Shown here piece by piece: positions 4,522 through 58,631 of a DNA stretch of 64,000 nucleotides (position 1 is the stretch's first letter; every line of letters starts with the position of its first letter). Below the pieces are notes generated by a model. That model searched no databases. It was given only the letters and a program-made list of their open reading frames with translations, and was not told the origin of the DNA. Source of the DNA: an uncultured virus (IMG/VR IMGVR_UViG_3300046462_000389) (taxonomy: Duplodnaviria > Heunggongvirae > Uroviricota > Caudoviricetes); the IMG/VR virus record IMGVR_UViG_3300046462_000389; one strand, written 5' to 3'. Made by a program: the position numbers and the translations under genes.

Positions 4522-5996
4522 CTGAGGGAGAACACGTTGTCTTCCTGCTTGACCACCTGACCGTCGATCCGGTCGTACTGACTCTTGACGTTGTCCTCCA
4601 CCGCGTGGGTCATCCAGTTGTTGTTCACCTTCGGCGGGGCGAACGGAGAGACGATCGGGAACCGGTTGGCCACCATCTTCCAGGCCAGCGCGGAGGAGCA
4701 CACCTCGTCGGGCAGGTGGAACTCCTTGGACCGGGAGAACATGTCGTCGGTCGACACGTGCTTGTGCGCGGTGTAGATCGAGTCGATCCGAGAGGCCCGG
4801 ACCCACTTCCGCTCCACGGCTGAGACGTACTCGCTGAGCATGTTGTCCCGTTGTGCGCCGGTCATCAAGAAGTTGCGGACCCGGTCCTCCAGGTAGTCCG
4901 CCACCACTCCACCCAGCCCGGTGGCGTCGTGAATGCCCTCCGCGTGGTAGCGCTTCTGCAGGGCGTTGAAGTAGCCCACCATCAGTGGGTAGGGACGGCG
5001 CTGCATCCGGACGTAGTAGGCCAGTCTGATCGGGGTCTCAGTGGCGTCCCAGACGGTGATGACGGTCCAGTCCACGTCCCTGGCCCAGTCGGCGGCGATC
5101 ACGTAGTCACGGATCACCTCAGGCTGCAGGATCAGGTACTCCTGGTGGTCACGAGTCAGCTTCAGCGGTTCCGGAGCTGGGGCGTCGAACATGAACTCGA
5201 CCGCCTCGGAGTCGATGGCCCGGTTGCCGATCGAAGGCTCACCGAGCTCGTACTCCACCCGCCAGGTTTCCCGGGAGACGGTCCGGCGCTTGTTCTCGAT
5301 GGCCTCCTGACTCAGCCACCCGTCGATCGGGTTCGAGGTGTCCTTGTAGCAGAACTCATAGATCGGCAGACCCTCTTCGCGGAACTTGGCCATCGCCTTG
5401 GTCATCGTGGAGTCCGCGTACTGGTGGGTGCTGACGGCGATGGTGTTGGCCGGGATCTCCACCCCGAGCCAGTTCTTCTGCGGCATCGGCTGGCCCAGCG
5501 CAGCCTCGTAGATCGATTCGTCCATCTCGTCGATCTCGTCCAGCGCCAGGAACGCCGGGTGAGGACCACGAACCGTCTTCTGGGATGCGGTCAGCGGCCG
5601 GATCTTTGCTCCGTTGGTCAGCTTGATCTCGGTCTTGTTGTCGCTCAGGATCATGTAGCTGGGTGCGTCCTGGTAGCGCCAGGCTCGGCTCATCGACTCG
5701 ATCACGTTGTTCGACTGGGCCAGCGAGCCACCCAGCACGTTGACATCACAGCCCCAGACCACAGCCTTGGTCAGGGCCAGCAGAGACATCATCACGCTCT
5801 TGCCGCTCAGGCCACGAGAACCCTTGACCAGCACCTGAGGCTCACGACCGAAGAAGGCGGTGGAGAAGGCGTCGAAGGGTGCCTGGTGCTCTGCGCAGAC
5901 CTTATGTCGTGGCACCGTGAATCCCCAGAGCGACTGGACCAGTTGGTAGAGCTCGTCGTCGTTACGAGGTGGGCGGGTCAGGTGGATCCTGGTCAT
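4518..5996 (-). CDS. terL: Terminase large subunit
   Basis: Walker A GSRGLSGKS, Walker B FLALDEIDE, nuclease motif IAADWARDVDWTV and C-terminal HLPDE. Confidence 0.9.
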   Translation of the reverse strand: MTRIHLTRPPRNDDELYQLVQSLWGFTVPRHKVCAEHQAPFDAFSTAFFGREPQVLVKGSRGLSGKSVMMSLLALTKAVVWGCDVNVLGGSLAQSNNVIESMSRAWRYQDAPSYMILSDNKTEIKLTNGAKIRPLTASQKTVRGPHPAFLALDEIDEMDESIYEAALGQPMPQKNWLGVEIPANTIAVSTHQYADSTMTKAMAKFREEGLPIYEFCYKDTSNPIDGWLSQEAIENKRRTVSRETWRVEYELGEPSIGNRAIDSEAVEFMFDAPAPEPLKLTRDHQEYLILQPEVIRDYVIAADWARDVDWTVITVWDATETPIRLAYYVRMQRRPYPLMVGYFNALQKRYHAEGIHDATGLGGVVADYLEDRVRNFLMTGAQRDNMLSEYVSAVERKWVRASRIDSIYTAHKHVSTDDMFSRSKEFHLPDEVCSSALAWKMVANRFPIVSPFAPPKVNNNWMTHAVEDNVKSQYDRIDGQVVKQEDNVFSLS

Positions 5997-6228
5997 TCTT
6001 GCCCTTCTGGATGGAGGTACCAGCCAAGTATCCGATGAGCGCGCCCACGATGGTGTTGATGATGTCTGCGATCCCCCGTGCTACCTCAGTCAGGTCCTCC
6101 TCGGGGTGTAGCACGAAGGTGATGATCAGAGTCACCCCGGTACTGATGATGAGTACCCCAGCGCAACTGGCCAGGATCAAGATGACGATCTCTCCAGCAG
6201 GGCGCTCCCGTAACTTCTTCGATGGCAC
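5962..6228 (-). CDS. Small two-TM membrane protein (holin-like)
   Basis: Two hydrophobic segments, IVGALIGYLAG, charged C-terminus. Confidence 0.55.
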   Translation of the reverse strand: MPSKKLRERPAGEIVILILASCAGVLIISTGVTLIITFVLHPEEDLTEVARGIADIINTIVGALIGYLAGTSIQKGKNDQDPPDPPTS

Positions 6229-17261: not shown

Positions 17262-17302
17262 ACTTCTTCTCAGCTCCTCGCGGACGCTTCCTTGGTGAGC
17301 AA

Positions 17303-17332
17303 GGCCCCCCGGTTCCTCCAGGCCGGGGGGCC
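17303..17332 (-). terminator. GC-rich hairpin between ssb and dnaE
   Basis: GGCCCCCCGG/CCGGGGGGCC 10-bp stem just after the ssb stop. Confidence 0.55.
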
Positions 17333-17341
17333 AAGCTGTTT

Positions 17342-18172
17342 CTACTCCAGAGCCGAGATCAGCGTCTCGGCCAGCTCTGATGGATCGTCGGTGTCGGGGA
17401 TCGGCACCCCGGCACGCTGGAACCAGACTCGCAGCTGGTCGGCACTCATGGCACGGATCTCAGACTCCCCCAACACCTGCTCGGTGTCTGTGTCAGGGGC
17501 TGGATCAAAAGGGGGATCCTCCTCCTGCTTCTTGTTCTCGAACTCAGCCGTCCGCTTGGCCTCGGCCACCTTCGCGTTGTTGGCCTTGGAAGCCTCCCGC
17601 TTGGCCGGGTCCCACCGGTAGTTCCAGGCATCGAGCAGAGCTGCCTGCTTGTCGTTCAGCTTCGAGGCGTACATCTCGATGTTGAAGGTGCTCGGGTCTT
17701 CCTTGTCCAAGGTGTAGTTGACCCGGTTGGCCTTCTCGTAGCGGATGACGTTGTACTCCCGCTTCCACATGGACTCATCCCGATGCCAGGACAGCTCCAG
17801 CGGCTCCTTCAGCGAGCCGGGGATCTTCCAGACGTTGACGTAGCCGTCAGCGTCCGGGTCGTCGGTCCGGATCGCGTTCACCAGGTACTTCTTGGAGATC
17901 CGAGACTCCTTGACCATGCTCGGGTCGTCCGGGTACTGGTCCTTCAGCTTGCAGCCAGGGCACTCAGCTCGCCCCTCGGGACTGGTCGCACTGCACGGAT
18001 AGCTGCACCGCTCCTTCTCGGAGTAGTGCTCCCAGTAGCAGATCCACTCAGTCCACGGTTCGAGGAACCGCAGGGTGAAGCTGCCGTTCTTCCCGAAGTA
18101 CCGGATGAAGTTGCCTCCACCCGAGCCGGTCGGGAAGTCCTGCTCCTCAGTTGTCTTGACTCCGAACTGCAT
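17342..18172 (-). CDS. Single-stranded DNA-binding protein (gp32-like)
   Basis: GGG.FI..LRFL..YWEH..PC..CPGC..YLVNAI; acidic linker near the C-terminus. Confidence 0.75.
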   Translation of the reverse strand: MQFGVKTTEEQDFPTGSGGGNFIRYFGKNGSFTLRFLEPWTEWICYWEHYSEKERCSYPCSATSPEGRAECPGCKLKDQYPDDPSMVKESRISKKYLVNAIRTDDPDADGYVNVWKIPGSLKEPLELSWHRDESMWKREYNVIRYEKANRVNYTLDKEDPSTFNIEMYASKLNDKQAALLDAWNYRWDPAKREASKANNAKVAEAKRTAEFENKKQEEDPPFDPAPDTDTEQVLGESEIRAMSADQLRVWFQRAGVPIPDTDDPSELAETLISALE

Positions 18173-22774: not shown

Positions 22775-22782
22775 CCATCAAG

Positions 22783-22833
22783 TTGGTCCCCGTCTACGGA
22801 CGGGGGCCTTCTTGTTGTTCAGAGGGACAACAA
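22783..22833 (+). repeat. Intergenic double-hairpin element, copy 2
   Basis: TTGGTCCCCGTCTACGGACGGGGGCCTTCTTGTTGTTCAGAGGGACAACAA. Confidence 0.8.
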
Positions 22834-23356: not shown

Positions 23357-23364
23357 GCTTCGAG

Positions 23365-23413
23365 TTGGCCCCCGTCTGCGGACGGGGGCCTTCTTGTTGT
23401 GCAGAAGCGCAAC
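23365..23413 (+). repeat. Intergenic double-hairpin element, copy 3
   Basis: TTGGCCCCCGTCTGCGGACGGGGGCCTTCTTGTTGTGCAGAAGCGCAAC. Confidence 0.8.
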
Positions 23414-25535: not shown

Positions 25536-25742
25536 GTGCTGGAGGCCAAAGGTTCCCGCTGGCCCGCCATCGTCACTCTCGTGGTGATGGTGGGGCTGGC
25601 GGGCGTGGGAGTGGACAGGGTCTTGTACCAGCCACCACTGCCTCCAGCAGCGTTACCTGCACCAACGGTGACCAGGACCGTCTACAAGCCCATGTTGGGT
25701 CCGGCAGGCTGGCACTGCCCGTCCCTGAAGGAGAAGAAGTGA
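25536..25742 (+). CDS. Small single-TM protein
   Basis: Hydrophobic N-terminal segment; fills the gap. Confidence 0.5.
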   Translation: MLEAKGSRWPAIVTLVVMVGLAGVGVDRVLYQPPLPPAALPAPTVTRTVYKPMLGPAGWHCPSLKEKK

Positions 25743-30701: not shown

Positions 30702-30896
30702 ATGATTCTGTTCTGTGTCCAACCAGACACCTGGATCAACCTGGACCAGGTGCTGGAGGTCAGTCTGTTGCCGAACACCAAGACTCGGTGCCAGATCAAG
30801 ATGGTCAACGACCGGTCGTACCAGGTCAACGAGAAGCTGTCCGACCTGGTCGTTCGGATGAACGATGTGGCTGCGGGTGCGGCTGCACAGAGCTAG
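30702..30896 (+). CDS. Small protein similar to the 29952-30326 domains
   Basis: WINLDQVLEV..QIKMVND. Confidence 0.6.
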   Translation: MILFCVQPDTWINLDQVLEVSLLPNTKTRCQIKMVNDRSYQVNEKLSDLVVRMNDVAAGAAAQS

Positions 30897-31012
30897 ACCA
30901 CACCCTCAGCTGGTGCTTCTGCATCGGCTGGGGGTGTCCGTGCGTCTGAGCCCTCCCCGGGGTTCAGCGGTCTGACCTGGATCAGGGGGTCGGGTCAGAC
31001 AGGAGGGGAGAG

Positions 31013-31038
31013 GTGGATACAGCCGCCTCTCCCCTCTG
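31013..31038 (+). terminator. Hairpin (3' part of GGAGGGGAGAGGTGG/CCGCCTCTCCCCTCT stem beginning near 31002)
   Basis: Long purine/pyrimidine stem in an intergenic gap. Confidence 0.45.
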
Positions 31039-31782: not shown

Positions 31783-32100
31783 TTCCCGAGGTACAGGTGT
31801 GGAAACCTGTCTCCCCCTCGGGAACAGAGGCACCCCCTGGGCCAGTCGCCCAGGGGGTGCTACTCTGCAGAAACCGAGAGGCTTACTGTCCAGGTCAGCC
31901 TCGATCGGGTGTTCACAGCCTATCGCTACGAGCGCCCGTACCAGTCAAGGGAGGTACTGCCTGCTCGTCGGGGATTCTATCTGTTCCATCCGATCACCTG
32001 TTCGACCCAGCTTTAGTGCGAACGGGCAAGGCTCAGTAGTCGGAACTCTGGCAGATGTAGATGACCGAGGGGACGACCACAGGCAATGTGGACCCTAAAA
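31783..32100 (+). ncRNA. Candidate structured non-coding element
   Basis: About 320 nt of successive stems with no credible ORF. Confidence 0.4.
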
Positions 32101-39279: not shown

Positions 39280-39477
39280 TAGTAAGACCCAGCTACTGGA
39301 ACAACTGGCCTGTACGAGCCCCTGGAAGACAAACGGGAAACGGTAGGCAGGCAGCCAGAGTGGTACCTAGAGGGTGCAACCGGAGGGCCGAGGATTCTTC
39401 CTCGGCCCTCTGGGCTTCGGTGTGCAAAACAGAGAGACACCAAGTTGCAGAGAACACACACAGACAAGGAAAGTTTC

Positions 39478-43145: not shown

Positions 43146-43212
43146 GACCCTGCTACCCCTGGTGGTGGGCTTCCTGGCCTTCACCGTGCTGTACAGCGTG
43201 TGGTTCGGGTGA
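43102..43212 (+). CDS. 36-aa hydrophobic peptide
   Basis: AAGGAG RBS before ATG 43102. Confidence 0.55.
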   Translation: MSWILVLLWKGVVAKTLLPLVVGFLAFTVLYSVWFG

Positions 43213-43634
43213 AGAGGGCAAACAGGCTGCTGACCAGCAAGAAGGTGGACAGCGCGCTCAGGATGCTCGCTGCGCTGAGCATGTTCTCGGTGGCAGCCCA
43301 GTTCCTCTTCAACCGGCCACCGCCTACCTGGGTGATGGTGTTCTTCTTCATCTTCTGCGGGGTGTACATCGTGGCCAGCCTGGTCGACAGGCTGATCAAG
43401 TGGGTGTTCTACCACCACTACGTCGGGAAGAGCTGGCTGTACCACTGCACAGGCCACTCGGACGGGACGACCTGTGAGCACGACGGGCAGAGGTGCGTGG
43501 TGTTCCCGGTCAGTGAGGACCAGACCAAGTTCATGGAGTTCATGGAGAGACAGCGCAACGTGACGGTCTACGAGGCCACCTTTGCCAGTGGCCAACAAGG
43601 CTTCGTGCACATCAGCAGCTTGAGGAAGGTCTGA
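43209..43634 (+). CDS. Two-TM membrane protein
   Basis: Two hydrophobic segments. Confidence 0.6.
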   Translation: MKRANRLLTSKKVDSALRMLAALSMFSVAAQFLFNRPPPTWVMVFFFIFCGVYIVASLVDRLIKWVFYHHYVGKSWLYHCTGHSDGTTCEHDGQRCVVFPVSEDQTKFMEFMERQRNVTVYEATFASGQQGFVHISSLRKV

Positions 43635-43637
43635 TAC

Positions 43638-43682
43638 TGTGCCCCCTACGCCCTCTGGGCGTAGGGGGCATAGAGTCTTTTT
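43638..43682 (+). terminator. Intrinsic terminator
   Basis: TGTGCCCCCTACGCCC/GGGCGTAGGGGGCATA stem with a downstream T run. Confidence 0.7.
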
Positions 43683-44477: not shown

Positions 44478-46622
44478 ATGCCCGAGACCCAGAGCGCGTT
44501 CAAGAACGCAGCTGATGCCTACGGGTCGATGTCACCAGGTGAGGTGCAGGGAGAGGTCACCGAGAAGCTGAACTCAGGTCCTGCCCTGGGTGAGCTGGGT
44601 GCCACCGGCCTGAAGCGGTCTGGCGGTGTCATCGACGAGGAGTTCCTCCCCGCCCTGAAGGGCACCAAGGGCGTCCAGGTCTTCACCGAGATGAGCAAGA
44701 ACGACCCTGTCGTGGGTGCGTTGCTGTTCACCATCGAGAAGCTGCTGCGCCAGATTGACTGGAACGTGGTGGGTGCAGATCAGACCCCAGAGCAGCAGCA
44801 GGCGGTTGAGTTCGTCGAAGAGTGCATGTCGGACATGAGTCACTCCTGGGACGACCTGATCGCAGAAGTGCTCTCGATGCTGCCCTACGGCTGGTCCTGG
44901 CATGAGGTGGTCTACAAGAAGCGGATCGGCCCCTGGGAGACATCCCCCAAGCGCAAGTCGAAGTTCAGCGACGGGAAGATCGGCTGGCGAAAGATCAGCA
45001 TCAGAGCCCAGGAGACGCTGTTTCGCTGGGTCTTCGATGACGATGGCGGGATCAAGGGGATGGTGCAGATCCCACCACCCAGATACACCCAGGTCACCAT
45101 CCCGATCGAGAAGAGCCTGCTGTTCCGGGTAGGCACCCACAAGGGCAACCCTGAGGGCGTCTCCATCCTGCGTAACGCCTACCGACCCTGGTACTTCAAG
45201 AAGCGGCTGGAAGAGTTCGAGGCCATCGGTGTGGAGCGTGACCTGGCTGGTCTGCCCACCGCCAAGGTGCCCAGCAGGATGATGAAGCCGAACGCCACTC
45301 CTGACGATGCCAGGATGTTCAACGCGTTCAAGAAGCTGGTCTCCAACGTGCGCCGGGACGAGCACGAAGGCATCGTGATCCCCAGTGATGCCGACCCGGA
45401 CACCAAGCTGCCGCTGTATGAGTTCGAGCTGATGAGCTCTGGCGGCTCCAGGACGTTCGACACCAACGCGCTGATCGACCGCAACAGCCAGGCGATCCTG
45501 ATGACTGTGCTGGCCGACTTCATCATGGTCGGCCACCAAGACGGTGGCAGCTATGCGCTGCACGTGGACAAGACCGGCATCTTCCGGGCAGCGCTGAACA
45601 GCATCGCCCAGAGCATCGCTGACACCTTCAACCGCCATGCCATCCCCAGGCTGTTTGCCATCAACGGCTGGAAGCTCGACCAGCTGCCCACCCTGAAGCC
45701 TGGCAACGTCGATCCCCCGAACCTGACTGAGCTGGGTGGCTTCATGACCCAGATGGCTCAGCTCGGGATGACCTTCTTCCCCGATCCCGACCTGGAGAAG
45801 TTCCTGCGCGAGACTGCGCACCTGCCCGAGCTACCTGAAGAGGTCGAAGAGCAGCACCGCAGCATGGCCCAGCAGCAGAACGCCATGGACTTCATGCAGC
45901 AGAAGATGGCTCACCAGGGTGTGGCTGACCAGGAGCAGATGGTCCAGGACGGCCTGACGCCAGATCAGGCCCAGATCGAGAGCCAGTCTCCGCATCCTGA
46001 CGGCATCCAGGGCCAGGCTGCCAACCAGCAGATGGCCAACGAGCAGCAGATGGCTGACCAGAAGCTGCAGAACACCGCTCAGGAGGGTCAGCTCAAGGCT
46101 GCCCAGGGTGCTCAGCAGCTCCAGCTCGGTGCGGCTACGGGTCAGCAGAAGCTGCAGCAGAGCGACGCTGCCCACCAGCAGCAGATGTCGCAGACCGATG
46201 CCCAGAACCAGCTGGCCAACACCCAGACAGCCACCCAGGGTCAGCTGAGCGCACAGCAGAAGCAGGATGAGCTGCAGTTCACCCAGCTGATGAACCAGCT
46301 GCAGGCTGCCCACGATCAGCAGATGAAGGACATGGAGCTGCAGCAGGGACAAGCCAGCGGTCAGCAGCAGCTGAAGCAAGGTGCTGCCAGCAACGACCAG
46401 AAGCTCAAGTTCGGCAGACAGTCCCATGAGCAGGAACTGCGTCATTCCAGAGACTCCCACACTCAGGGGCTGAAGCAGTCCAGTGCCGAAGGTCGCCAGA
46501 AGATGTCCCAGGAGAAGGCCAGCCACGAGCAGAAGCTGAAGGACGCCAAGCGCGAGGCCAACTACAACAAGCTGCACGACGCCAAGAACGACAAGGACCG
46601 CCCATCCAAGTTCAAGAGATAG
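44478..46622 (+). CDS. Portal protein (DUF935-like) with long Gln-rich extension
   Basis: ELGATGL..DEEFL..GWSWHEVVYK..GNPEG.SILR.AY..ERD..G.P; probable leaderless start. Confidence 0.85.
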   Translation: MPETQSAFKNAADAYGSMSPGEVQGEVTEKLNSGPALGELGATGLKRSGGVIDEEFLPALKGTKGVQVFTEMSKNDPVVGALLFTIEKLLRQIDWNVVGADQTPEQQQAVEFVEECMSDMSHSWDDLIAEVLSMLPYGWSWHEVVYKKRIGPWETSPKRKSKFSDGKIGWRKISIRAQETLFRWVFDDDGGIKGMVQIPPPRYTQVTIPIEKSLLFRVGTHKGNPEGVSILRNAYRPWYFKKRLEEFEAIGVERDLAGLPTAKVPSRMMKPNATPDDARMFNAFKKLVSNVRRDEHEGIVIPSDADPDTKLPLYEFELMSSGGSRTFDTNALIDRNSQAILMTVLADFIMVGHQDGGSYALHVDKTGIFRAALNSIAQSIADTFNRHAIPRLFAINGWKLDQLPTLKPGNVDPPNLTELGGFMTQMAQLGMTFFPDPDLEKFLRETAHLPELPEEVEEQHRSMAQQQNAMDFMQQKMAHQGVADQEQMVQDGLTPDQAQIESQSPHPDGIQGQAANQQMANEQQMADQKLQNTAQEGQLKAAQGAQQLQLGAATGQQKLQQSDAAHQQQMSQTDAQNQLANTQTATQGQLSAQQKQDELQFTQLMNQLQAAHDQQMKDMELQQGQASGQQQLKQGAASNDQKLKFGRQSHEQELRHSRDSHTQGLKQSSAEGRQKMSQEKASHEQKLKDAKREANYNKLHDAKNDKDRPSKFKR

Positions 46623-50466: not shown

Positions 50467-50651
50467 AGTGCGAGCTCTGCGGGAAAGAACTGCCGAAGGA
50501 ACATGCCTGGGCGAAGATCAGGGCACATTCAGACGGCTGGTTCTTCAGTAAGGACGGCACGGCCTGGTGCCCGGATCACAATCCTGAGTGGGTGGCCGAA
50601 TGGCGCGCCAAGCAGAAGACCAAGAAGACCACACCACACAGAGCCGAGTAG
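50463..50651 (+). CDS. Small Zn-finger protein
   Basis: CELC..GW..WCPDH. Confidence 0.6.
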
Positions 50652-50706
50652 TCCTGCCATACTGACCCTGGGTGAGGGGGAGGAGACCACAGAGAAGGAG
50701 CATGGT

Positions 50707-52083
50707 GTGAAGTACCTCGCCTACGACGAGGACGGCGTACAGCGCCTCGTTGACCAGCCAGACGCTGCATCAGGAGCACCGGGAACGGTAGGTCCGGCAG
50801 GTCCGCAAGGACTGCCAGGTCCAGCAGGACCACAGGGTGTGCCGGGTCAGCAAGGCGTTCCTGGCCCTGCCGGTAAGGACGGTGCCAAGGGTGACCAGGG
50901 CATTCCTGGTGCTCAGGGCGTTCAGGGCATTCCTGGACCAGCTGGAGCTCCTGGAACCGGTGGCGGAGGTTCTGGCGTTGCCACCATCCAGCCAGGCTTC
51001 CGCTCCTTCGACTCACTCGGTAGTGACGACAACGCCAGAGTGACGGCGATGAACAACTACCACCAGAACCACGGTGGCAACCCGACCGATGCGATTGCCA
51101 TGCCCAGCCGGGTGATCAACCACAGCGTGCCGATCAAGCTGTTCTCTGGGATGACCATGGTTGGTCCTGTCCCGGCCCGAGAGTACGGGAGGCACACCAC
51201 GCTGGTCTGGTCAGGTGGATCTGGCAGCTCTCAGTTCATCTTCCCCTCCGAGGGACAGTCAGGTCAGGGTTATCCCAGCGATGGCTCACCTCGTGATGGC
51301 AGCTTCATCAACATCTTGTTCCAGGGTGGCTCCTCCACTCACTGCATCCAGTACTTCGACGTGCACACCAACGCCTACTCCGGTCACACCCTGTGGTACT
51401 GGCTGTTCCGAGACTGTGGCTGGCGCTACTTCCAGACCGTCTGGAACGGCTGGGGTGATGGTGTGGTGATCGATGGCATCCCGCACCTGCAGGCCATCAA
51501 CAAGACGGCATTCGCGGTCGGTGGCAGCGAGAACCGGCTGTTCGGTGGTGGCTACGGGCTGCAGGATGCCCAGCCGTCGAACTGGTCTGCTCCTGGCCAG
51601 CCGCAGCTGCACTGCCACTCCTCACGTCTCCTGGTCTCAGATGCGATGCTGTCCGCTCGGGGTGACTGCTACGGCCTGCTGATCGACTACGGCTACAACA
51701 TCTATGTCGATGGTCTGGCAGTAGATGCTCCTGACTCAGCTCCCCACTTCGGTGCGAGCATCAAGGTCACGGGCGGCAACAACATCACCCTGGACGGGAT
51801 CAGCCTCAAGGGCGGGATGCACAACCCGGGCGGAGCTACTGGTGGGCTCAACCGTGGAGTGATCGACATCTCTGGCGGCAGCAACATCGTGCTGTCCGGG
51901 ATCAACGCGCTGCGTCAGGGCACCAATGCCCCGTCCAGCACCCCGGTGGTCTACGTGGCGGCAGCTGCCAAGGGTGTGTTCATCCACAGCATCAACTGCT
52001 TCGGCTACGACGGCATCATCAAGGCCGAGCAGCCCTCCAATGTGTTCTGCTTGGACCCGAGACTGAAGGTTGTACAGGCATAG
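50707..52083 (+). CDS. Collagen-linked beta-helix (receptor-binding/depolymerase-like) protein
   Basis: AAGGAG RBS; GXY run then [20 protein letters not shown] repeats. Confidence 0.7.
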
Positions 52084-52337: not shown

Positions 52338-52546
52338 ATCTGTCCCAGAACGGCAATGACGAGCTGTGCCGGGTCTTCGAGGAGATCACCGGAGCTGACT
52401 CGACCAAGACCTTCCCCGACATCGGGATCGAGTTCAACGGTGATGTGCACATGCTGCGCTGGACCGGCTTCCAGGCCATTACCGAGGCTCAGGCAGAACA
52501 GCTGATCAAGGCCTTCCAGCAGTTCGAGGAGCTCGATCTCAGATGA
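52325..52546 (+). CDS. Hypothetical protein
   Basis: Overlapping start; converges on the minus-strand block. Confidence 0.55.
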   Translation: MARLNLSQNGNDELCRVFEEITGADSTKTFPDIGIEFNGDVHMLRWTGFQAITEAQAEQLIKAFQQFEELDLR

Positions 52547-52802
52547 GCGACTGAACCGCTGACAGCAACTGGGCGTCGGTGATGACTGAAGGATCAGCAC
52601 CAGGTTTTGGCTTGTCGGTGGCTATCGCGTAGGCGTAGGCATCACCGAAGTCGGGCTGTGAGGCCATCTTCCAGATGTGCTCAGCAGTCCAGGCACCAGG
52701 ATTGTCACCCTCGGTGCTCAGCGTCTCGCCCGCGTAGCAGGCTGTCACTCTGCCCTGGAAGTCGGTGTCCTGGGTCAGCAGGAACACGTCGTAGTAACCC
52801 AT
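52539..52802 (-). CDS. Small fibre-associated protein
   Basis: AAGGAG RBS; D.DFQGRV.AC..ITDAQLLSAVQ. Confidence 0.65.
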   Translation of the reverse strand: MGYYDVFLLTQDTDFQGRVTACYAGETLSTEGDNPGAWTAEHIWKMASQPDFGDAYAYAIATDKPKPGADPSVITDAQLLSAVQSLI

Positions 52803-52804
52803 CA

Positions 52805-53572
52805 CTACTCCTTGAGCCAAGTGAACGAGAGCCTGCACACCGACAACGCACCTGTGTTGTAGGTCGGGTTCCACTGGGTGACCGAACCGTCTGAGGAGGC
52901 CACACCAAGGCTCAGACCGGAACCGGCAGAGCTGCCAGCTGAGTAGACGGTGACAGCCGGGCGATAAGCAGATGGGATTCCACCGGCAGCGACGACTGGA
53001 CCATTGGTGTTCGATGCCAATGAGGTCATGCCGGACAGAGAGATGCTGACCCCGACCACACCGTTGACACAGCGCCAGCGACAGGTACCTGTCCCAGAGA
53101 CTGGAGTCAGGTTGGCCCAGCCGGTGTCGTCGTAGACAACTGAGCCAGGAGGCCCAGTAGGACCAGCTGGCCCGGTCAGCCCGGTTGGTCCAGTGGCACC
53201 TTGCGGACCGGTGTTACCGATCGGTCCCGTCAGACCGGTGGTGCCTTGTGGCCCGGTGTTACCGGTTGGGCCAGTCAGCCCAGTAGGCCCAGTTGGTCCA
53301 GCAGGTCCAATCGTGCCCTGCGGGCCAGTGTTGCCAGTTGGTCCGGTAGGCCCAGTGGAACCAGTCGGTCCCTTGATGTTGGCTCTGACCACCCAGCCAC
53401 CGGTCGTCTTCTCATAGACCTGGCCGGAGACCTGGTCCAGATACCAGTCACCAAGCGCTCCGAGACCAGCTGCCGGAGCTCCGTTACCCGACCACCAGGC
53501 TTCGGCCTGAGCTGTGCCACCACCAGTTGGTGGGATCAGAGCCTCGTCCAGCCCGTTGTCGATGAGCAGCAT
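52805..53572 (-). CDS. Collagen-like tail fibre protein
   Basis: G.GAP..GD.YLD..GQVY, long GPT run, DTGW..IP.AYRP tip domain. Confidence 0.8.
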
Positions 53573-53727
53573 CAGCGCTGGTTCGGGTCAGATCCGTCGT
53601 CGAAGTCCTCGGGCGGGTTGAGATCGGTCGGCACGTGTTCCTCGATGTCTTCCACAGTGAAGTCGTAGTCCTCGGTGGCTTCACCATCAACATCGGGATC
53701 GTCAACTTCTGGCTTCAGGCCGGACAT
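53572..53727 (-). CDS. 51-aa acidic peptide
   Basis: GGGGAG RBS, TGATG overlap with the next gene. Confidence 0.55.
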
Positions 53728-53736
53728 ATCTCTCCC

Positions 53737-54297
53737 CTAAGAGCTGGCCCACGACTTCAGGTCAGCACGCGAGCCGAAGGCTGCCTTGTTCTGGTCCATT
53801 GGTTTGTCAGTGTATTGCCAGAAGGTCCAGCCATCGATGTCTGGCGACGAGCCGTAGACAGCAAGCCAGAGGAAGTCACCTTTGGTCTTGTTGGAGTTGT
53901 TCCACATCGACCGGTTGACGTAGAGACCGACCTTGTTCCTGTTGCCGACCAGCTTGGCGACAGCCTTCATGAAGTTGTCCTTGTCGGCCTGGGACGGCAC
54001 TCCACCACCGGTCCCCTCCCAGTCACAGACCAGCAGGTCGCCGTCCTTCATCCCGGCGTTGCGGGCACAGGCGACGAACCAGTCAGCCTGCTTGGCTGGT
54101 GAGCCAGAGGCACTAGACGGCCACAGAAAATGGTAGAAACCGACAACCAGACCTGCATCCCGAGCAACTCGGACCAGCTTGGGAGCTTCCTTGGACTTCC
54201 AGCTCTGGCCTTCGGAGACCTTGACAAAGACGAAGTCATCACGGGCAGAGGGCACCCAGTACTTCTGGTAGTCCGATACATCTACACCGTGAACCAG
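53737..54297 (-). CDS. GH25 muramidase domain; start unresolved (read-through or CTG)
   Basis: HGVDVSDYQ, FVFVKVSEG, GFYHF, DWE, LWLA.Y, FWQY, DQN; DVS lies upstream of the first GTG. Confidence 0.85.
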   Translation of the reverse strand: MVHGVDVSDYQKYWVPSARDDFVFVKVSEGQSWKSKEAPKLVRVARDAGLVVGFYHFLWPSSASGSPAKQADWFVACARNAGMKDGDLLVCDWEGTGGGVPSQADKDNFMKAVAKLVGNRNKVGLYVNRSMWNNSNKTKGDFLWLAVYGSSPDIDGWTFWQYTDKPMDQNKAAFGSRADLKSWASS

Positions 54298-54378
54298 TCC
54301 CTGCTGGCTGGTTCCGTCGCTACGGCCCTGTCCGGCGATCTGACTGGTAGCAGCCGGGTCGCCCCCGCTGCTACCCCT

Positions 54379-55302
54379 TCAAGCGGCACCTTCGACCGTG
54401 GCTGAGCCGAGCACAGCGGTCTTGGACGCGGTCTGGTAGACCAGCCGCAGTCGCTTGGACCGGCCAGATGCCCCCTTGCCGAGCTTGCCGACGAAGGTGA
54501 TCTCAGCGGTGCGGTAGCCAGCAGCCCCGCCGACAAGCCTGCGCGAGTCACGACGCCCTGACCAGCCGGTCGGCCACTTGGCATCGCCACCGTCGCCCTT
54601 GGTGTCACAGATGGTCCAGGCGATGTCGATCGCCTCACCGTCCTTGAGCCCGGTGATGGTGACGTTGGCGGTGTACACGATGATCTGGTCACCCGTGTCC
54701 TGGGCAGCTGTAGCCGAACCGCTGTCGTTCAGCGGGAAGGCCACGTTCCACTTCCCGGAGGTATCGGTCGGGATCCTCCAGTCCGTGCTGCGCCTCATGC
54801 TGGTTGCCTGGGTCATGCCAAGGAGTCCCTTCGGTTCGGGCGGTGCTGCTGGCTTCTTGTTCTTGACGGCCTGTTGCCAGGTCGGGGTGGACGATCCCTT
54901 GGGACCAGGTCCGGTGATCGGTCCACGACCGACCAGACCATTCCTACCGGCTTCCCACTCACTCTGCTGGTAGGCAGCTCCGCTGGAGACGTGCGGACAG
55001 CCTTTCCAGACGCCGTGACCGTGGGGGGAGAACTTCTGCGCAACAGTGCGGTGCTGCATCTCCACGCCCCACGAGCGCCAGACGGCCAGTGCTGCATCGG
55101 AGAAGTTACCGGTGTCCAGCACCCCTCCGCCGTCGTGAGTTCCGGCAGAAGCGGTGACCCCGCCCTTGTTGTAGCCAGCCTGGAAGATGGTGATCGAGCC
55201 GTTCTGGCTGATGATCCCCTTGGCCTTCATCTCGGCTTCGATCAGCGGCAGAGTGATGCGTTGGCACTCGCAGACCTTCCAGCCCCGATACATCACCACC
55301 AT
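54379..55302 (-). CDS. Endolysin, Zn-peptidase (M15-like) domain plus C-terminal domain
   Basis: SAGTHDGGGVLD and PHGH Zn ligands; probable leaderless start (TACGAT-6nt-ATG). Confidence 0.8.
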   Translation of the reverse strand: MVVMYRGWKVCECQRITLPLIEAEMKAKGIISQNGSITIFQAGYNKGGVTASAGTHDGGGVLDTGNFSDAALAVWRSWGVEMQHRTVAQKFSPHGHGVWKGCPHVSSGAAYQQSEWEAGRNGLVGRGPITGPGPKGSSTPTWQQAVKNKKPAAPPEPKGLLGMTQATSMRRSTDWRIPTDTSGKWNVAFPLNDSGSATAAQDTGDQIIVYTANVTITGLKDGEAIDIAWTICDTKGDGGDAKWPTGWSGRRDSRRLVGGAAGYRTAEITFVGKLGKGASGRSKRLRLVYQTASKTAVLGSATVEGAA

Positions 55303-55352
55303 GGCCTCATCGTAGAGCAGGGCAGCCTGGACGCCGCTGAGATGATGGCCCT

Positions 55353-56270
55353 ATGCCATGGGAGCGTCAGGGTAGCGGGTTCACCACCAAGGATCGAGGT
55401 GGTTATGTCAAGAACCCCGCGCAGTACGAGAAGCTCCGCTCCAAGGGCATGAGCAAGCAGCGGGCTGCTGCCATCACCAACTCGGTCAACAAGGGAGCCA
55501 CGGTGTACGACGGTGAGTTTGCCAAGGCGTTCTGGACCAGGCGCACCGATGAGCAGAAGGAACAGCTACGCGGTCTGCGGAGCAACCTGAAGCGCGCCAA
55601 GCGGCGGCGAGCAGGTGCTCGGGACTCGGCTGCCTTCAATGCCGAGCAGAAATTCCGGGATCGTAATCCGCACCTGTCGCTGGCTGCCGACATGTCCAAC
55701 GCTGTCTTCCCCGCTACCCACACCTCCAACGCGCTGAATGCCGGGTTCGCGGGCGCGAGAAACCGTGGAGTCCAGGAGCATCAGAACTCCGCGTACGGCC
55801 AGCGGCTGGAGCGGGACGTGAAACGGCACCGGACCAACTACCGCCAGGGCAAGAAGGAACTCAAAAAAGGAGCCAACATGATCGACAGCCCGTGGGAGCA
55901 GAGCGCCTTCTCTCCCGTCTCCAAGGCTCGGCAGGCCAACCGTAACCAGGCAATCGGACAGGGTGCAGGTGATCTCCTGGGTGCTGGGGCGATCGGCTCC
56001 GGTGTCGGTGCCGCGATGTCTGCGAAGAGCGGCAAGAAGTGGAGTGCCGGTTGGCGAGCTGGTGGTCGGACCACGGCTGAGTCTGCTGCTGGCGGTGCTG
56101 GTGGTGCGCTGGCTGGTGCTGGCATCGGTGCGTTGACTCGTCGTCCCACTGGGATCCAGACCGGTGCCCGGGTCGGTGGGTTGGTCGGCGGTATCGGTGG
56201 TGGTTTCCACGGCGGTAACGCCTCGGTCAACAACTCCCGCAACAAGGGTTGGCTGAAGCGCGGTTACTGA
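55353..56270 (+). CDS. Basic Gly/Ala-rich probable head-internal protein
   Basis: YEKLR.KGMSKQRAAAI.N N-terminus, xK(A/G) motifs, Gly zipper. Confidence 0.6.
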   Translation: MPWERQGSGFTTKDRGGYVKNPAQYEKLRSKGMSKQRAAAITNSVNKGATVYDGEFAKAFWTRRTDEQKEQLRGLRSNLKRAKRRRAGARDSAAFNAEQKFRDRNPHLSLAADMSNAVFPATHTSNALNAGFAGARNRGVQEHQNSAYGQRLERDVKRHRTNYRQGKKELKKGANMIDSPWEQSAFSPVSKARQANRNQAIGQGAGDLLGAGAIGSGVGAAMSAKSGKKWSAGWRAGGRTTAESAAGGAGGALAGAGIGALTRRPTGIQTGARVGGLVGGIGGGFHGGNASVNNSRNKGWLKRGY

Positions 56271-56295: not shown

Positions 56296-57861
56296 ATGAC
56301 TTTGCAGATGGTCGACAGCTCGATCTCCAAGGCTGCTCCGCTGTTCACCACGCACGAGCGGAGAGAACGAGCCAATCGTTCTCAGCAGGCTCAGGACAAC
56401 ATGGGCCTCGGTATCACGGCTGCTGGTGGTGGTGGCTACGCCATTCATCGCGGTGCTAAGCATCTCGGGGCTGCCGGTCGCGCCTTCAACCTGTCGAACC
56501 AGAGCTACCGCTCAGGAGTGGCAGAAGAGGCCAAGAACAAGCCGTTCAGCACCAAGTTCGAGCGTCAGTCGCCCAAGAAGAAGGCCAAGCCCTACCGGTC
56601 GACCTCGACCACGCTGGAGCAGTCTTCTCGTACCTGGGGGGTACACAACCCGACCGCCAAGACCAACGCCTGGAACGCCTACCACCACTTCGCGGAGGGT
56701 GCGCGGTACCGCAAGATCGGACAGGGTCTGCGAGGACGTGGTGCGCTGCTCGCTGGTGGTGGTCTGGCTGCTGTCGGTGGTGGAACTGCCCTAGTTCGGC
56801 ACGGTTACCGCCAGTCGAATGCTCTGAAAGAGGAGAGGCGAGTACGCCAGTCAGAGCGTCGGGCCATGTCCAAAGCTGACTGGCAGACCCTGGAGAACAT
56901 CGACCGTAGTTCGAGCAAACAGCGCCGGAAGCAGAAGAGCGCCAAGGTGGCCGGATCAGCTGGTCTGGCGATTGCCGCTGCACCGCTGGTGGCCGATCTG
57001 CAGGGCACCCATGGTGCCGCTGACAGCTTCAGCCAGGCCCGTGGTCTGGGTACCAGGGTCAAGGCTGCCTCCAGCAGGTTCTACCCGGGAGGCGCGGGCA
57101 AGCGGGCAGGCACGGTGCTCAGGGCTGCTCGGGCCTTCCCCAAGGGCACCGCGCTGCTCGCTGGTGGAGCCCTGGCAGCTGGTGGGGGCAGCAAGTTCGC
57201 CTACCACTACGCCCGGGAGAAGCACTTCAACAACGAGGCAGCTGTCCGGCGCAAGTCCAACCATCAGGACTACCTGCGGAACAGGCGTCGGGTCAACAAG
57301 GCTCTCGGCCAGTCCATCCTGAAGCCACTGAAGGCCATGAAGCCAGCGGCTCGTGAGCTGCGGGCGGCTAAGAAGACCATGCCTGCGACGGCCCGGACAG
57401 TGGGTGCTCCCAAGGCCGGGACCAAGACAACCAACACCAGTGTCAACAAGCCGATGGGCTTCATGCGTCCGGGCAAGACCACCACCACCAACATGACCTG
57501 GGGTCAGGGTGGGACCAGCGCCATGGACCGGACTACGACATCGGGTAGGAAGGACAACTTCCTCTACCGACCTGCCAAGCACTTCGAGACGACCAGTACG
57601 GTGCGCTCCGGTCTGGGAGCTCCGAGCACCACCAGCACCAGCGGTACTACTCCCGGGCAGTTCACCAACAAGGGCAAGGTGGCCTTCGGTGCTGGTCTGG
57701 GGGTGGCTGGCACGGCAGGTGCACAGCAGGTCCACCAGAACACGGCGCAGCGTCGACAGCTGACCACCAGCGCCTTCGCCAAGAGCGCGCCAGACCAGGC
57801 AGACGCGCATGTTGTCGGTACGCTCAGGCGAGTAAAGAAGGTGCCCAGGAAGGCGGGTTAG
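56296..57861 (+). CDS. Basic Gly/Ala-rich probable head-internal polyprotein
   Basis: ISKA, MSKA, VNKA, FAKS motifs separating basic segments. Confidence 0.6.
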
Positions 57862-58631
57862 TGGCAAGTACCTGGTACTCCTCCAACACCCAGACCCCGA
57901 CCCATACTGCTGTCACCAGCCCGCAGTGGGGTGACATGTTCCTCTACGCGACCGGGGATGTCTGGCGCTACGACACTGCCTGGACCTACCAGTTCACGCT
58001 GTACGGGATCGAGGGGCGACGAGGACCGGTCGGACCGATCGGCCAGGGCTTCACCGTCTCCAGCGCGGTCAAGACGACTGCTCAGCTGCCGACCACGGCT
58101 CCGATGTACACCATCGTCGCGGTCACCGACCTGCAGGAGTACTGGCTGAAGACCGCCACCGCCTGGGTCAGCATGGGCTCCTACGCCGGTCAGCAGGGCA
58201 ACCCGGGGCCGCTCTGGTACGTCTACAACGGCACCACCATCAACTCCCCCTCCGATGTCAAGAACCCGCGTACTGGTGATCTGTACCTGGCTCAGAACGG
58301 CACCATCTCGACTTGGAGCGGCACAGCCTGGACTTCCCAGATGCAGCTCACCGGTCCGCCTGGTCCGGTCGGTCCCAAGGGTGACCCGGGGATCGCGGGT
58401 AGTCAGGGTCAGCCTGGCTCTCAGGGTCCGATCGGCAATCCCGGTCCTGCTGGTCCGACCGGTCTTACTGGCTCTCAGGGACCTCCTGGTAACACCGGTC
58501 CGGCTGGCCCCACGGGTCCAGCTGGCCCGACTGGTCCGATGGGCAATGCCGGTCTGATCGTGCTGGCCACAGGTGCTGCGGTGCCACCAGGCACTGCACC
58601 AGGCACTGTCATCCTGCGCGTCCCGGCGTAG
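57861..58631 (+). CDS. Collagen-like structural protein
   Basis: GD.YL..G..W motifs and a GXY run. Confidence 0.75.

Follow-up and report, generated by a model that had tools for sequence, protein, structure and literature searches.

Mycobacteriophage Ms6 LysA, CD27L/CTP1L, and Lys170 are examples of endolysin genes that yield two products each via an internal start. The split lysin A genes of actinobacteriophages represent a different arrangement, in which a peptidase and a glycosidase are encoded by separate genes, each, as far as is known, with an ATG, GTG, or TTG start. In the leviphage Q-beta, a single-stranded RNA phage, the A1 protein is made by UGA read-through of the coat gene. The lysin locus described here was found in a 64,000-nucleotide stretch of DNA (hereafter, the window) from an uncultured member of the Caudoviricetes (IMG/VR record IMGVR_UViG_3300046462_000389). 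It includes a complete lysin gene, designated ORF-A, and an intact gene for a GH25 muramidase, which lies in the same reading frame behind the TGA stop of ORF-A and has no ATG, GTG, or TTG start before its catalytic Asp. Lysins with several domains are well known in both split and fused form; a conserved start-less lysin gene in phase behind the stop of its neighbor is a new variation on this theme. The original prediction for this locus was an endolysin gene split by a UGA that is read through with the help of a hairpin, with a CTG start or a sequence error among the alternatives. Our analysis tentatively favors two ancestrally separate lysin genes, the second of which would start at this CTG.

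Organization of the lysin locus

ORF-A is located on the minus strand (55302-54379), has an ATG start, encodes 307 amino acids (aa), and terminates with TGA at 54381-54379, as given in the list of open reading frames (ORFs). Behind this stop, the same frame stays open for 213 codons and runs through the complete GH25 domain (RGSSGGDPAATSQIAGQGRSDGTSQQGLVHGVDVSDYQKYW). With the TGA read as X, there is a single open frame of 521 residues, which extends to a TAG at 53739-53737. The first in-frame ATG, GTG, or TTG past the TGA is the GTG at 54255, nine codons behind the Asp of the DVS motif. In the full start set of NCBI table 11, which includes CTG, the first candidate past the TGA is the ATC at 54339 and the next is the CTG at 54297. 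The TGA, the in-frame GH25, the absence of a start codon, the hairpin, and their coordinates had all been given correctly in the original prediction, and all of these features are on the minus strand. The parts of the locus are as follows (AF2, AlphaFold2; nt, nucleotides).

54379-55302, minus strand: ORF-A lysin (ORF list; 142 homologues at E <= 0.001, mostly of ~300 aa)
54838-55302, minus strand: predicted LAS-type (VanX/VanY/Ply500-like) zinc peptidase domain, ORF-A residues 1-155 (AF2 model, VIA, invariant residues)
54382-54837, minus strand: predicted C1q/TNF-like jelly-roll domain, ORF-A residues 156-307, entered via a GLLGMT linker (AF2, VIA, Foldseek)
54379-54381, minus strand: TGA stop of ORF-A (sequence)
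54346-54375, minus strand: hairpin of 9 bp, a G.G mismatch, and 3 bp, with a GCGA loop and without a T tail (fold)
54298-54378, minus strand: 81-nt spacer, a Gly/Ser/Gln-rich 'linker' of 27 codons if translated (translation)
54295-54297, minus strand: CTG, Leu336 of the read-through frame, candidate GH25 start (alignment with GH25 relatives)
53737-54297, minus strand: GH25 muramidase ending with TAG, 186 aa with the CTG as start (Pfam PF01183, PHROG 291)
54253-54255, minus strand: GTG picked by gene callers for a 172-aa ORF, probably not the real start (behind the invariant Asp)
53572-53727, minus strand: next gene of the leftward unit, an acidic ORF of 51 aa with a good Shine-Dalgarno sequence, GGGAGA (ORF list; no PHROG match)

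GH25 domain and the position of its start

The Pfam profile of GH25 (PF01183) matches residues 340-501 of the read-through frame, covering profile positions 1-175 of 180 (E 1e-27 to 8e-27), and PHROG 291, 'endolysin', matches the same domain with E 7e-32. The Asp of the DVS motif (D33) is invariant in 13 aligned GH25 sequences. Among 184 GH25-bearing proteins collected, the domain is located at the very N-terminus in 148 and is internal in 23. The first residue of the 148 N-terminal GH25 proteins aligns with the CTG (Leu336) in 55 cases and with the residue before it in 60, and 139 of these proteins start within -3 to +1 of the CTG. Examples of the N-termini of stand-alone enzymes are MIHGVDIS, MLHGVDVS, and VIEGVDVA. 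Judged from these alignments, the CTG at 54297 occupies the usual start position of stand-alone GH25 relatives. The original prediction had regarded relatives with an ATG at this position as speaking against read-through; what was found goes part of the way, in that the first residue of more distant GH25 relatives is M or V and coincides with the CTG or adjoins it.

The 90% cluster of GH25 consists of nine members, which include five proteins of 172 aa called from the GTG, three proteins of 104 aa called from the next ATG, and one 56-aa piece. One of the 104-aa members (P0217) is encoded on the same 3093-nt ENA contig as P0003, a relative of ORF-A with 83% identity. P0217 has 18 differing residues in the last 104 of GH25, which is about the same identity as that of ORF-A in this lineage. 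No in-frame ATG, GTG, or TTG is present in the window between the GTG at 54255 and the next ATG. The simplest explanation of the 104-aa calls is that these members do not retain the GTG, and this speaks against its being the real start.

Reality of the stop codon and strain variation

An IMG/VR contig is identical to the locus across 1851 nt; it may share the source of the window. The stretch is carried, wholly or partly, by 24 soil or rhizosphere metagenome runs, six of which are marked as possible sources; no RNA run is listed. Logan contigs from three other studies (X12, X14, and X18; likeness setting of 80 for the X14 side contig) span the stop: 54246-54454 with 0 differences in X12, 54262-54507 with five differences and no gaps in X14, and 54172-54693 with 32 differences (~6% divergent) and no gaps in X18. 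Run X19 contained almost only short, unrelated pieces. All six members of the 90% cluster of ORF-A end with ...TVEGAA. A sequencing or assembly error as the cause of the TGA is ruled out by the IMG/VR contig, the Logan contigs, and these cluster ends, and for the same reasons the stop and the phase are features of the phage population. The sequence error considered by the original prediction can thus be dismissed, since the contigs of the three other studies keep the stop without gaps.

Strain variation was assessed across contigs from 40 of 162 differences that are listed. None of these 40 differences falls within 54298-54381. In X14, no more than one difference in 120 nt occurs in the segment 54262-54381, which comprises the stop, the hairpin, the spacer, the CTG, and the beginning of the GH25 coding sequence; the 126 nt beyond this segment have four. 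This near-invariance points to an RNA-level constraint or a recombination mosaic. The region 54139-54261, i.e., GH25 just behind the GTG, is a hot spot of strain divergence (22 differences in the neighboring 152-nt contig of X14 and 19 in a 158-nt contig of X12), and the spacer beside it is nearly invariant. One further X14 contig, with a depth of 227.9, joins 54465 to 54616 and skips 150 nt (50 codons, in frame) within the C1q-like domain; a related phage in which this domain is shorter may be its source.

Among the listed differences, synonymous ones make up five of seven in GH25 and 21 of 29 in ORF-A, and GH25 appears from this comparison to be under purifying selection. Since GH25 looks selected and yet has no canonical start, it should be made by some non-canonical route.

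Domain composition of ORF-A

The AF2 model of ORF-A residues 1-155 has a pLDDT of 93. All 12 VIA matches of this domain with Z >= 5 are LAS peptidases (Z 5.4-7.0; root-mean-square deviation, rmsd, 2.2-4.6; 92-115 residues). The matches include Hedgehog-N, VanX, the DD-peptidase of Streptomyces albus, VanXY, MepA, VanY, LdcB, and the phage endolysins Ply500 and LysB4. The Z values are middling; unrelated chains reach Z <= 3.6 and weaker LAS chains go down to Z 3.1. Residues H56, D63, H94, and H96 are invariant in 30 sequences and form the pattern H-x6-D / H-x-H, which we take to be the metal-ligand motif of LAS zinc peptidases. ORF-A had no Pfam match at E <= 10, no PHROG match, and, with a profile, no PDB sequence match at E <= 1; a Foldseek search with the N-terminal domain gave nothing at E <= 0.001. 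On the basis of the model, residues 1-155 are predicted to be a LAS-type zinc peptidase. The label 'peptidase', which had been assigned to the upstream gene in the original prediction, agrees with this fold and with the invariant motif.

Residues 156-307 of ORF-A are most similar in VIA to the C1q domain of Caprin-2 (Z 11.3; rmsd 2.1; 112 residues), followed by F-BclA (Z 10.9) and the tail-fibre CBD of cyanophage A-1(L) (Z 10.8). Matches with Z ~10.6-10.9 comprise BclA-type C-terminal domains, a TNF-like lectin, and the cyanophage fibre CBD. The Foldseek E value of this domain is 5e-5. The modeled structure suggests a C1q/TNF-like jelly roll, which probably acts as a trimerizing, wall-binding head.

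The C1q-like wall-binding module, as present in P0004-P0016, is always entered via G[IL]LGMT, and no Pfam or PHROG lysin family was matched. Many stand-alone GH25 relatives (P0123, P0124, P0129, P0130, P0133, and P0138) have a short conserved tail at their end, G[IL]LG[ML]TK[IV]EKFxYSG. This tail corresponds to the linker and the first strand that open the C1q-like domain of ORF-A relatives, with the remainder of the domain absent; it could be a docking strand for the trimer of a partner or a truncated module.

A near-identity DNA search of 50,697 phage records gave no match to the locus. In a tblastn search of the same records, the GH25 part alone was matched, with identities below 60% (26.8-35.8% among the 40 rows listed).

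Comparative evidence at the end of ORF-A

The homologue search with ORF-A took in proteins of 168-538 aa, so that a 521-aa fusion was detectable among its 142 matches. In all 27 homologues composed of the peptidase and the C-terminal domain (CTD), the C-terminus lies no more than a few residues from the last strand of the CTD. The 83% relative (P0003) ends with TVEGGA, and the ~52% relatives end with TVEGGY. In one of the 52% relatives (locus L083), there is a TAG at the end of the lysin, followed by an unrelated 263-aa gene and no GH25.

The read-through protein was also used in a HMMER pass over 1.84 billion representatives, of which the best 150 were taken, and the domain order was scored in 348 proteins. 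These included 36 proteins with the order GH25-peptidase, one GH25-peptidase-CTD, two GH25-CTD, one peptidase-GH25 (P0238), and 27 peptidase-CTD. A natural single ORF with the order peptidase-CTD-GH25 was found neither among the 142 homologues nor in the best 150 of the 1.84 billion representatives. The 75 residues past the stop, compared with proteins of 41-132 aa, gave no candidate homologue. Apart from the identical contig and one 52% relative, IMG/VR contained nothing else, and GTDB genomes scanned with the read-through protein gave no match. A metagenome scan with the ORF-A alignment, in which 80 loci were kept of at least 593 stretches, retrieved mostly distant matches of the N-terminal domain, and neither the 52% nor the 83% relative was among them; a GH25 within 3 kb of the ORF-A N-domain relative is absent from all 80 loci kept. 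A scan with the GH25 relative P0123 yielded distant GH25 loci only.

Because of the uniform ends of the 27 homologues, the TAG in L083, and the domain-order counts, the stop of ORF-A is the normal C-terminal end of the family, and natural fusions use another domain order. In the comparison of homologous loci proposed by the original prediction, the stop is kept in all six cluster members of the clade, the frame is free of gaps in X14 and X18, and L083 has no GH25 behind its TAG.

Hairpin, spacer, and window context

The hairpin (GGUAGCAGC-G-GGG-GCGA-CCC-G-GCUGCUACC, 54375-54346) begins 3 nt past the TGA. The 81-nt piece folds at -40.7 kcal/mol compared with -30.2 ± 3.4 kcal/mol for its shuffles (z -3.07; 2 of 200 shuffles as good), and the hairpin itself has -26.2 kcal/mol over 36 nt. 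It is not followed by a T run, so that the U tract of an intrinsic (rho-independent) terminator is absent, and a terminator consensus scan of 53500-55500 gave 0 sites. Only three chance miRNA/snoRNA rows were obtained from Rfam at E <= 10 for this stretch.

A crude gene map of the window, based on GC content at third codon positions, comprises 83 ORFs. The hairpin behind ORF-A is the fourth strongest among these 83 gene ends. The three stronger ones belong to genes 30702-30896, 17342-18172, and 43200-43634 and are located 4-8 nt past the stop, also without a T run. Very strong stem-loops of -26 to -34 kcal/mol in 36 nt are mostly intergenic in this phage, and several of them occur 4-8 nt past a stop without a T run (17299-17338, 22779-22814, 23361-23396, 30901-30936, 31001-31038, 31827-31864, 39379-39414, and 43637-43674). 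Those at 22779 and 23361 have nearly the same sequence. Since three stronger hairpins of the same kind exist and strong hairpins are mostly found between genes, the hairpin of the lysin locus looks like the usual gene-end element of this phage rather than a dedicated read-through signal. Its presence 3 nt past the UGA and the lack of a U tail are as originally described; a role specific to this site finds no such agreement, given that three other gene ends match or exceed it.

If translated, the spacer gives a stretch of 27 residues before GH25 (RGSSGGDPAATSQIAGQGRSDGTSQQG; G7 S5 Q4 A3, no aromatics, no Cys), and its likeness to a Gly/Ser linker was rightly noted before, with Gln and Ala as further abundant residues. 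The GC content of this single sequence is ~0.68/0.72/0.72 by codon position (79 of 81 nt), without coding periodicity.

A spacer of 81 nt stays open in a given frame with a frequency of 0.53 in samples of unannotated DNA and 0.61 in shuffled sequence, which gives a chance of ~0.2 for being both in frame and open (0.53-0.61 x 1/3). At 13 places in the window, a single stop parts two open frames of at least 150 codons. An open in-frame continuation is, therefore, not rare; the missing canonical start is the unusual part. GH25 is the only case in the 83-ORF map in which the open stretch ahead of the first canonical start is coding-like. TGA is the commonest stop and ends 51 of the 83 ORFs, and no tRNA genes were found in the window. 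On these grounds, a global recoding of TGA or a suppressor was rejected; nothing in the stop usage or the tRNA content of the window points to stop-codon recoding.

Possible routes of GH25 synthesis

Both gene boundaries fall where members of two independent families normally end or begin, and the hairpin is of a generic kind; the locus would therefore be a leftward unit of a soil phage in which two lysin genes of separate ancestry follow each other. In the explanation that we tentatively prefer, ORF-A would be a complete 307-aa lysin, with a LAS-type zinc peptidase and a C1q/TNF-like wall-binding head, that ends at its normal TGA. The 81-nt spacer would bear the usual gene-end stem-loop, which may function as a T-tail-less terminator, an attenuator, or an mRNA-stabilizing hairpin. 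A stand-alone 186-aa GH25 muramidase would then start at the CTG at 54297, where its relatives have ATG or GTG. This near-cognate codon, without a well-spaced Shine-Dalgarno sequence, would keep the amount of muramidase low compared with that of the peptidase lysin. The comparisons given above show where the boundaries of the two genes lie, that the start position is homologous to that of relatives, that the hairpin is of a generic kind, and that GH25 looks selected; actual use of the CTG and a low product level are what we infer.

Several observations weigh against a start at the CTG. Bacterial CTG starts run at ~1% of ATG, and because of this weakness the output from the CTG may be no higher than that of basal UGA read-through. 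The Shine-Dalgarno-like AGCAGGGA abuts the CTG with a spacing of 0 (it ends at -1), and its pairing energy is -4.3 kcal/mol versus a median of -6.4 kcal/mol for the 83 genes. A consensus scan of 53500-55500 for sigma-70-like promoters gave 0 sites. A single base change in the CTG would give TTG, GTG, or ATG, and a canonical start before the catalytic Asp is found in none of the nine GH25 cluster members, the 83% lineage included. The frame between ORF-A and GH25 is kept without indels in the X18 variant. The linker is clean in the GH25 frame, and the other two frames of the spacer are stop-containing or Arg/Leu/Cys-rich. Finally, GH25 of the window has, unlike many of its relatives, neither a wall-binding module nor a GLLGMT tail of its own.

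The strongest competitor, which we consider possible but somewhat less probable, is conserved read-through of the UGA. Some ribosomes would decode the TGA, e.g., by tRNA-Trp, and produce a 521-aa peptidase-C1q-like-GH25 lysin via the 27-residue linker. Since the C1q-like domain should trimerize, the 521-aa form may join mixed trimers with the 307-aa form, with or without help from the hairpin. Stated in full, and with the same probability, a soil virus resembling actinophages would make a three-module lysin (LAS peptidase, trimerizing C1q-like head, and GH25) as a small, fixed share of its product by reading through the UGA of its main lysin gene, the start of the once-separate muramidase gene would have been lost, and the muramidase would reach the wall solely as a mixed-trimer passenger. 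The poor initiation signals at the CTG, the selection on a GH25 whose whole cluster has no canonical start ahead of the catalytic Asp, and its lack of a binding module or tail all speak for this possibility, as does a frame that is open, in phase, and free of gaps in X18 despite 32 differences. So do the composition of the linker, the better conservation of the X14 spacer than of the coding DNA on either side, the internal position of GH25 in 23 of the 184 proteins, and the one natural peptidase-GH25 fusion (P0238). UGA is the leakiest stop, C at +4 makes a leaky context, and 3' structures can stimulate read-through (PMC7026636); the +4 base behind the TGA of ORF-A is A, not the C linked to leaky UGA.

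Other observations are at odds with read-through as well. The stop is at the normal end of the family, relatives outside the clade have no GH25 behind it, and the protein searches gave neither a variant with TGA changed to a sense codon nor a fused homologue. The hairpin belongs to a class present at other gene ends of the window, and its 5' arm, only 3 nt away, would sit inside the ribosome with the UGA in the A site. The N-terminus of GH25 coincides with the usual start of stand-alone enzymes, and the spacer is devoid of codon periodicity. To our knowledge, programmed read-through is hardly known in double-stranded DNA phages, and a literature search, judged by its listings (titles and abstract openings), found no case of natural endolysin read-through and nothing specific on CTG start codons in actinobacteriophages. 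The CTG start at 54297, which the original prediction had mentioned as an alternative, is now a slightly better reading than the 521-aa fusion. The two routes are not mutually exclusive, and, if the lysin is well expressed, its basal read-through could supply GH25 in amounts equal to those from a weak CTG start.

It appears improbable that GH25 is not made in active form, either because translation starts at the GTG at 54255 and omits the first strand and the catalytic Asp or because the gene was recently silenced and is decaying. This would agree with the 172 aa given by gene callers from the GTG, with the absence of a canonical start upstream of it, and with the 52% relative, which manages with ORF-A alone. 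The GTG, however, is not kept, since three of nine cluster members are called at 104 aa from the next ATG, and the part before it is an intact GH25 N-terminus with the invariant Asp, matched by the Pfam profile from position 1. The proportion of synonymous differences in GH25 (five of seven, versus 21 of 29 in ORF-A) and the preservation of the last 104 GH25 residues in the 83% lineage at about the identity of ORF-A also speak against an inactive GH25.

Recoding of another kind, i.e., a gene-60-like GCU-to-GCU bypass, insertion of selenocysteine at a SECIS-like element, or suppression by a phage tRNA whose gene lies outside the window, is hardly credible: a GCT precedes the TGA, GCT GCT recurs in frame 24 and 27 nt later in the 3' arm of the hairpin, a stem-loop is present at the take-off site, and the apical loop begins 16 nt past the UGA, but the GCU match follows from hairpin symmetry and Ala-rich coding, the stretch has no Rfam match beyond the chance rows, the window has no tRNA and uses TGA as its main stop codon, and selenocysteine has no evident use in a linker.

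Neighboring genes

The phage has a genome of ~80 kb; the largest contig that bears ORF-A is 81,055 nt. The portal gene is located in the window at 44478-46622. Collagen-like genes of the tail-fibre type, with G-x-y repeats, flank the lysin pair (52805-53572 on the minus strand; 50503-52083 and 57861-58631 on the plus strand). No holin adjoins the lysins, and no holin-like small membrane ORF was found near them. Small ORFs with hydrophobic stretches occur far from the lysins, e.g., at 5962-6228 and 25536-25742. The two proteins may be endolysins or virion-borne lysins.

In the 52% relative L083 (2619-2825 and 2971-3906), a 68-aa ORF with hydrophobic stretches, holin-like by eye, is located ~145 nt upstream of the lysin. 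It has no homologue in the window. It is preceded by a homologue of the window ORF 52539-52874 (52% over 90 aa), i.e., the same genes occur there in another order.

Comparison with known systems

Under either reading, CTG start or read-through, the rule on which annotation relies is broken, since the phage lineage retains an intact, selected enzyme gene that has no ATG, GTG, or TTG start. Because such a start is missing, gene callers report GH25 at 172 or 104 aa, without its catalytic Asp. If the CTG start is true, the locus would exemplify, in a natural lysis gene, non-canonical initiation that is weak by design. Should the UGA be read through, this would be one of the rare instances of programmed read-through in a double-stranded DNA phage, here in a lysis gene caught at the stage of gene fusion. 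It would then offer a snapshot of how multi-domain lysins arise from neighboring genes and a natural means by which two wall-cutting activities are combined in a set proportion on one trimeric scaffold. The C1q-like head, as the wall-binding part of a lysin, is also of interest to those who engineer lysins.

The translational bypass in T4 gene 60 shares with this locus a stop directly behind a codon that recurs in frame downstream, as well as a stem-loop at the site (PMC7026636). The gap in gene 60 is 50 nt, while here it would be 27-30 nt, the frame is the same on both sides, a bypass is needless, and no nascent-peptide signal is known.

The split lysin A genes of actinobacteriophages resemble this locus in that a peptidase gene and a glycoside-hydrolase gene are adjacent on one strand. 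They have the usual starts, whereas GH25 of the window has none, and no phage record searched is close. With Ms6 LysA, CD27L/CTP1L, and Lys170, the locus shares the possible origin of two related lysis proteins, which may assemble together, from one locus at a fixed ratio. Those genes use a canonical internal start within one ORF; here, the start is missing and a stop intervenes.

As in the case of Q-beta A1, UGA ends a complete, functional protein, and the start-less in-frame extension would be produced in a low, set proportion and might enter the oligomer of the shorter form. The extension in Q-beta, however, has no stand-alone homologues, while here it is a whole predicted enzyme whose relatives are independent genes that start exactly at the junction.

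The closest counterparts in module content are natural lysins that combine GH25 with a LAS peptidase, with or without the C1q-like domain (P0230, P0233, and P0052). These have the same three modules, a GLLGMT-type linker into the C-terminal domain, and, by the source names of the nearest matches, the same soil/actinobacterial setting. They are encoded by one uninterrupted ORF with GH25 first, in contrast to the locus described here, in which GH25 comes last, behind a stop and an 81-nt spacer.

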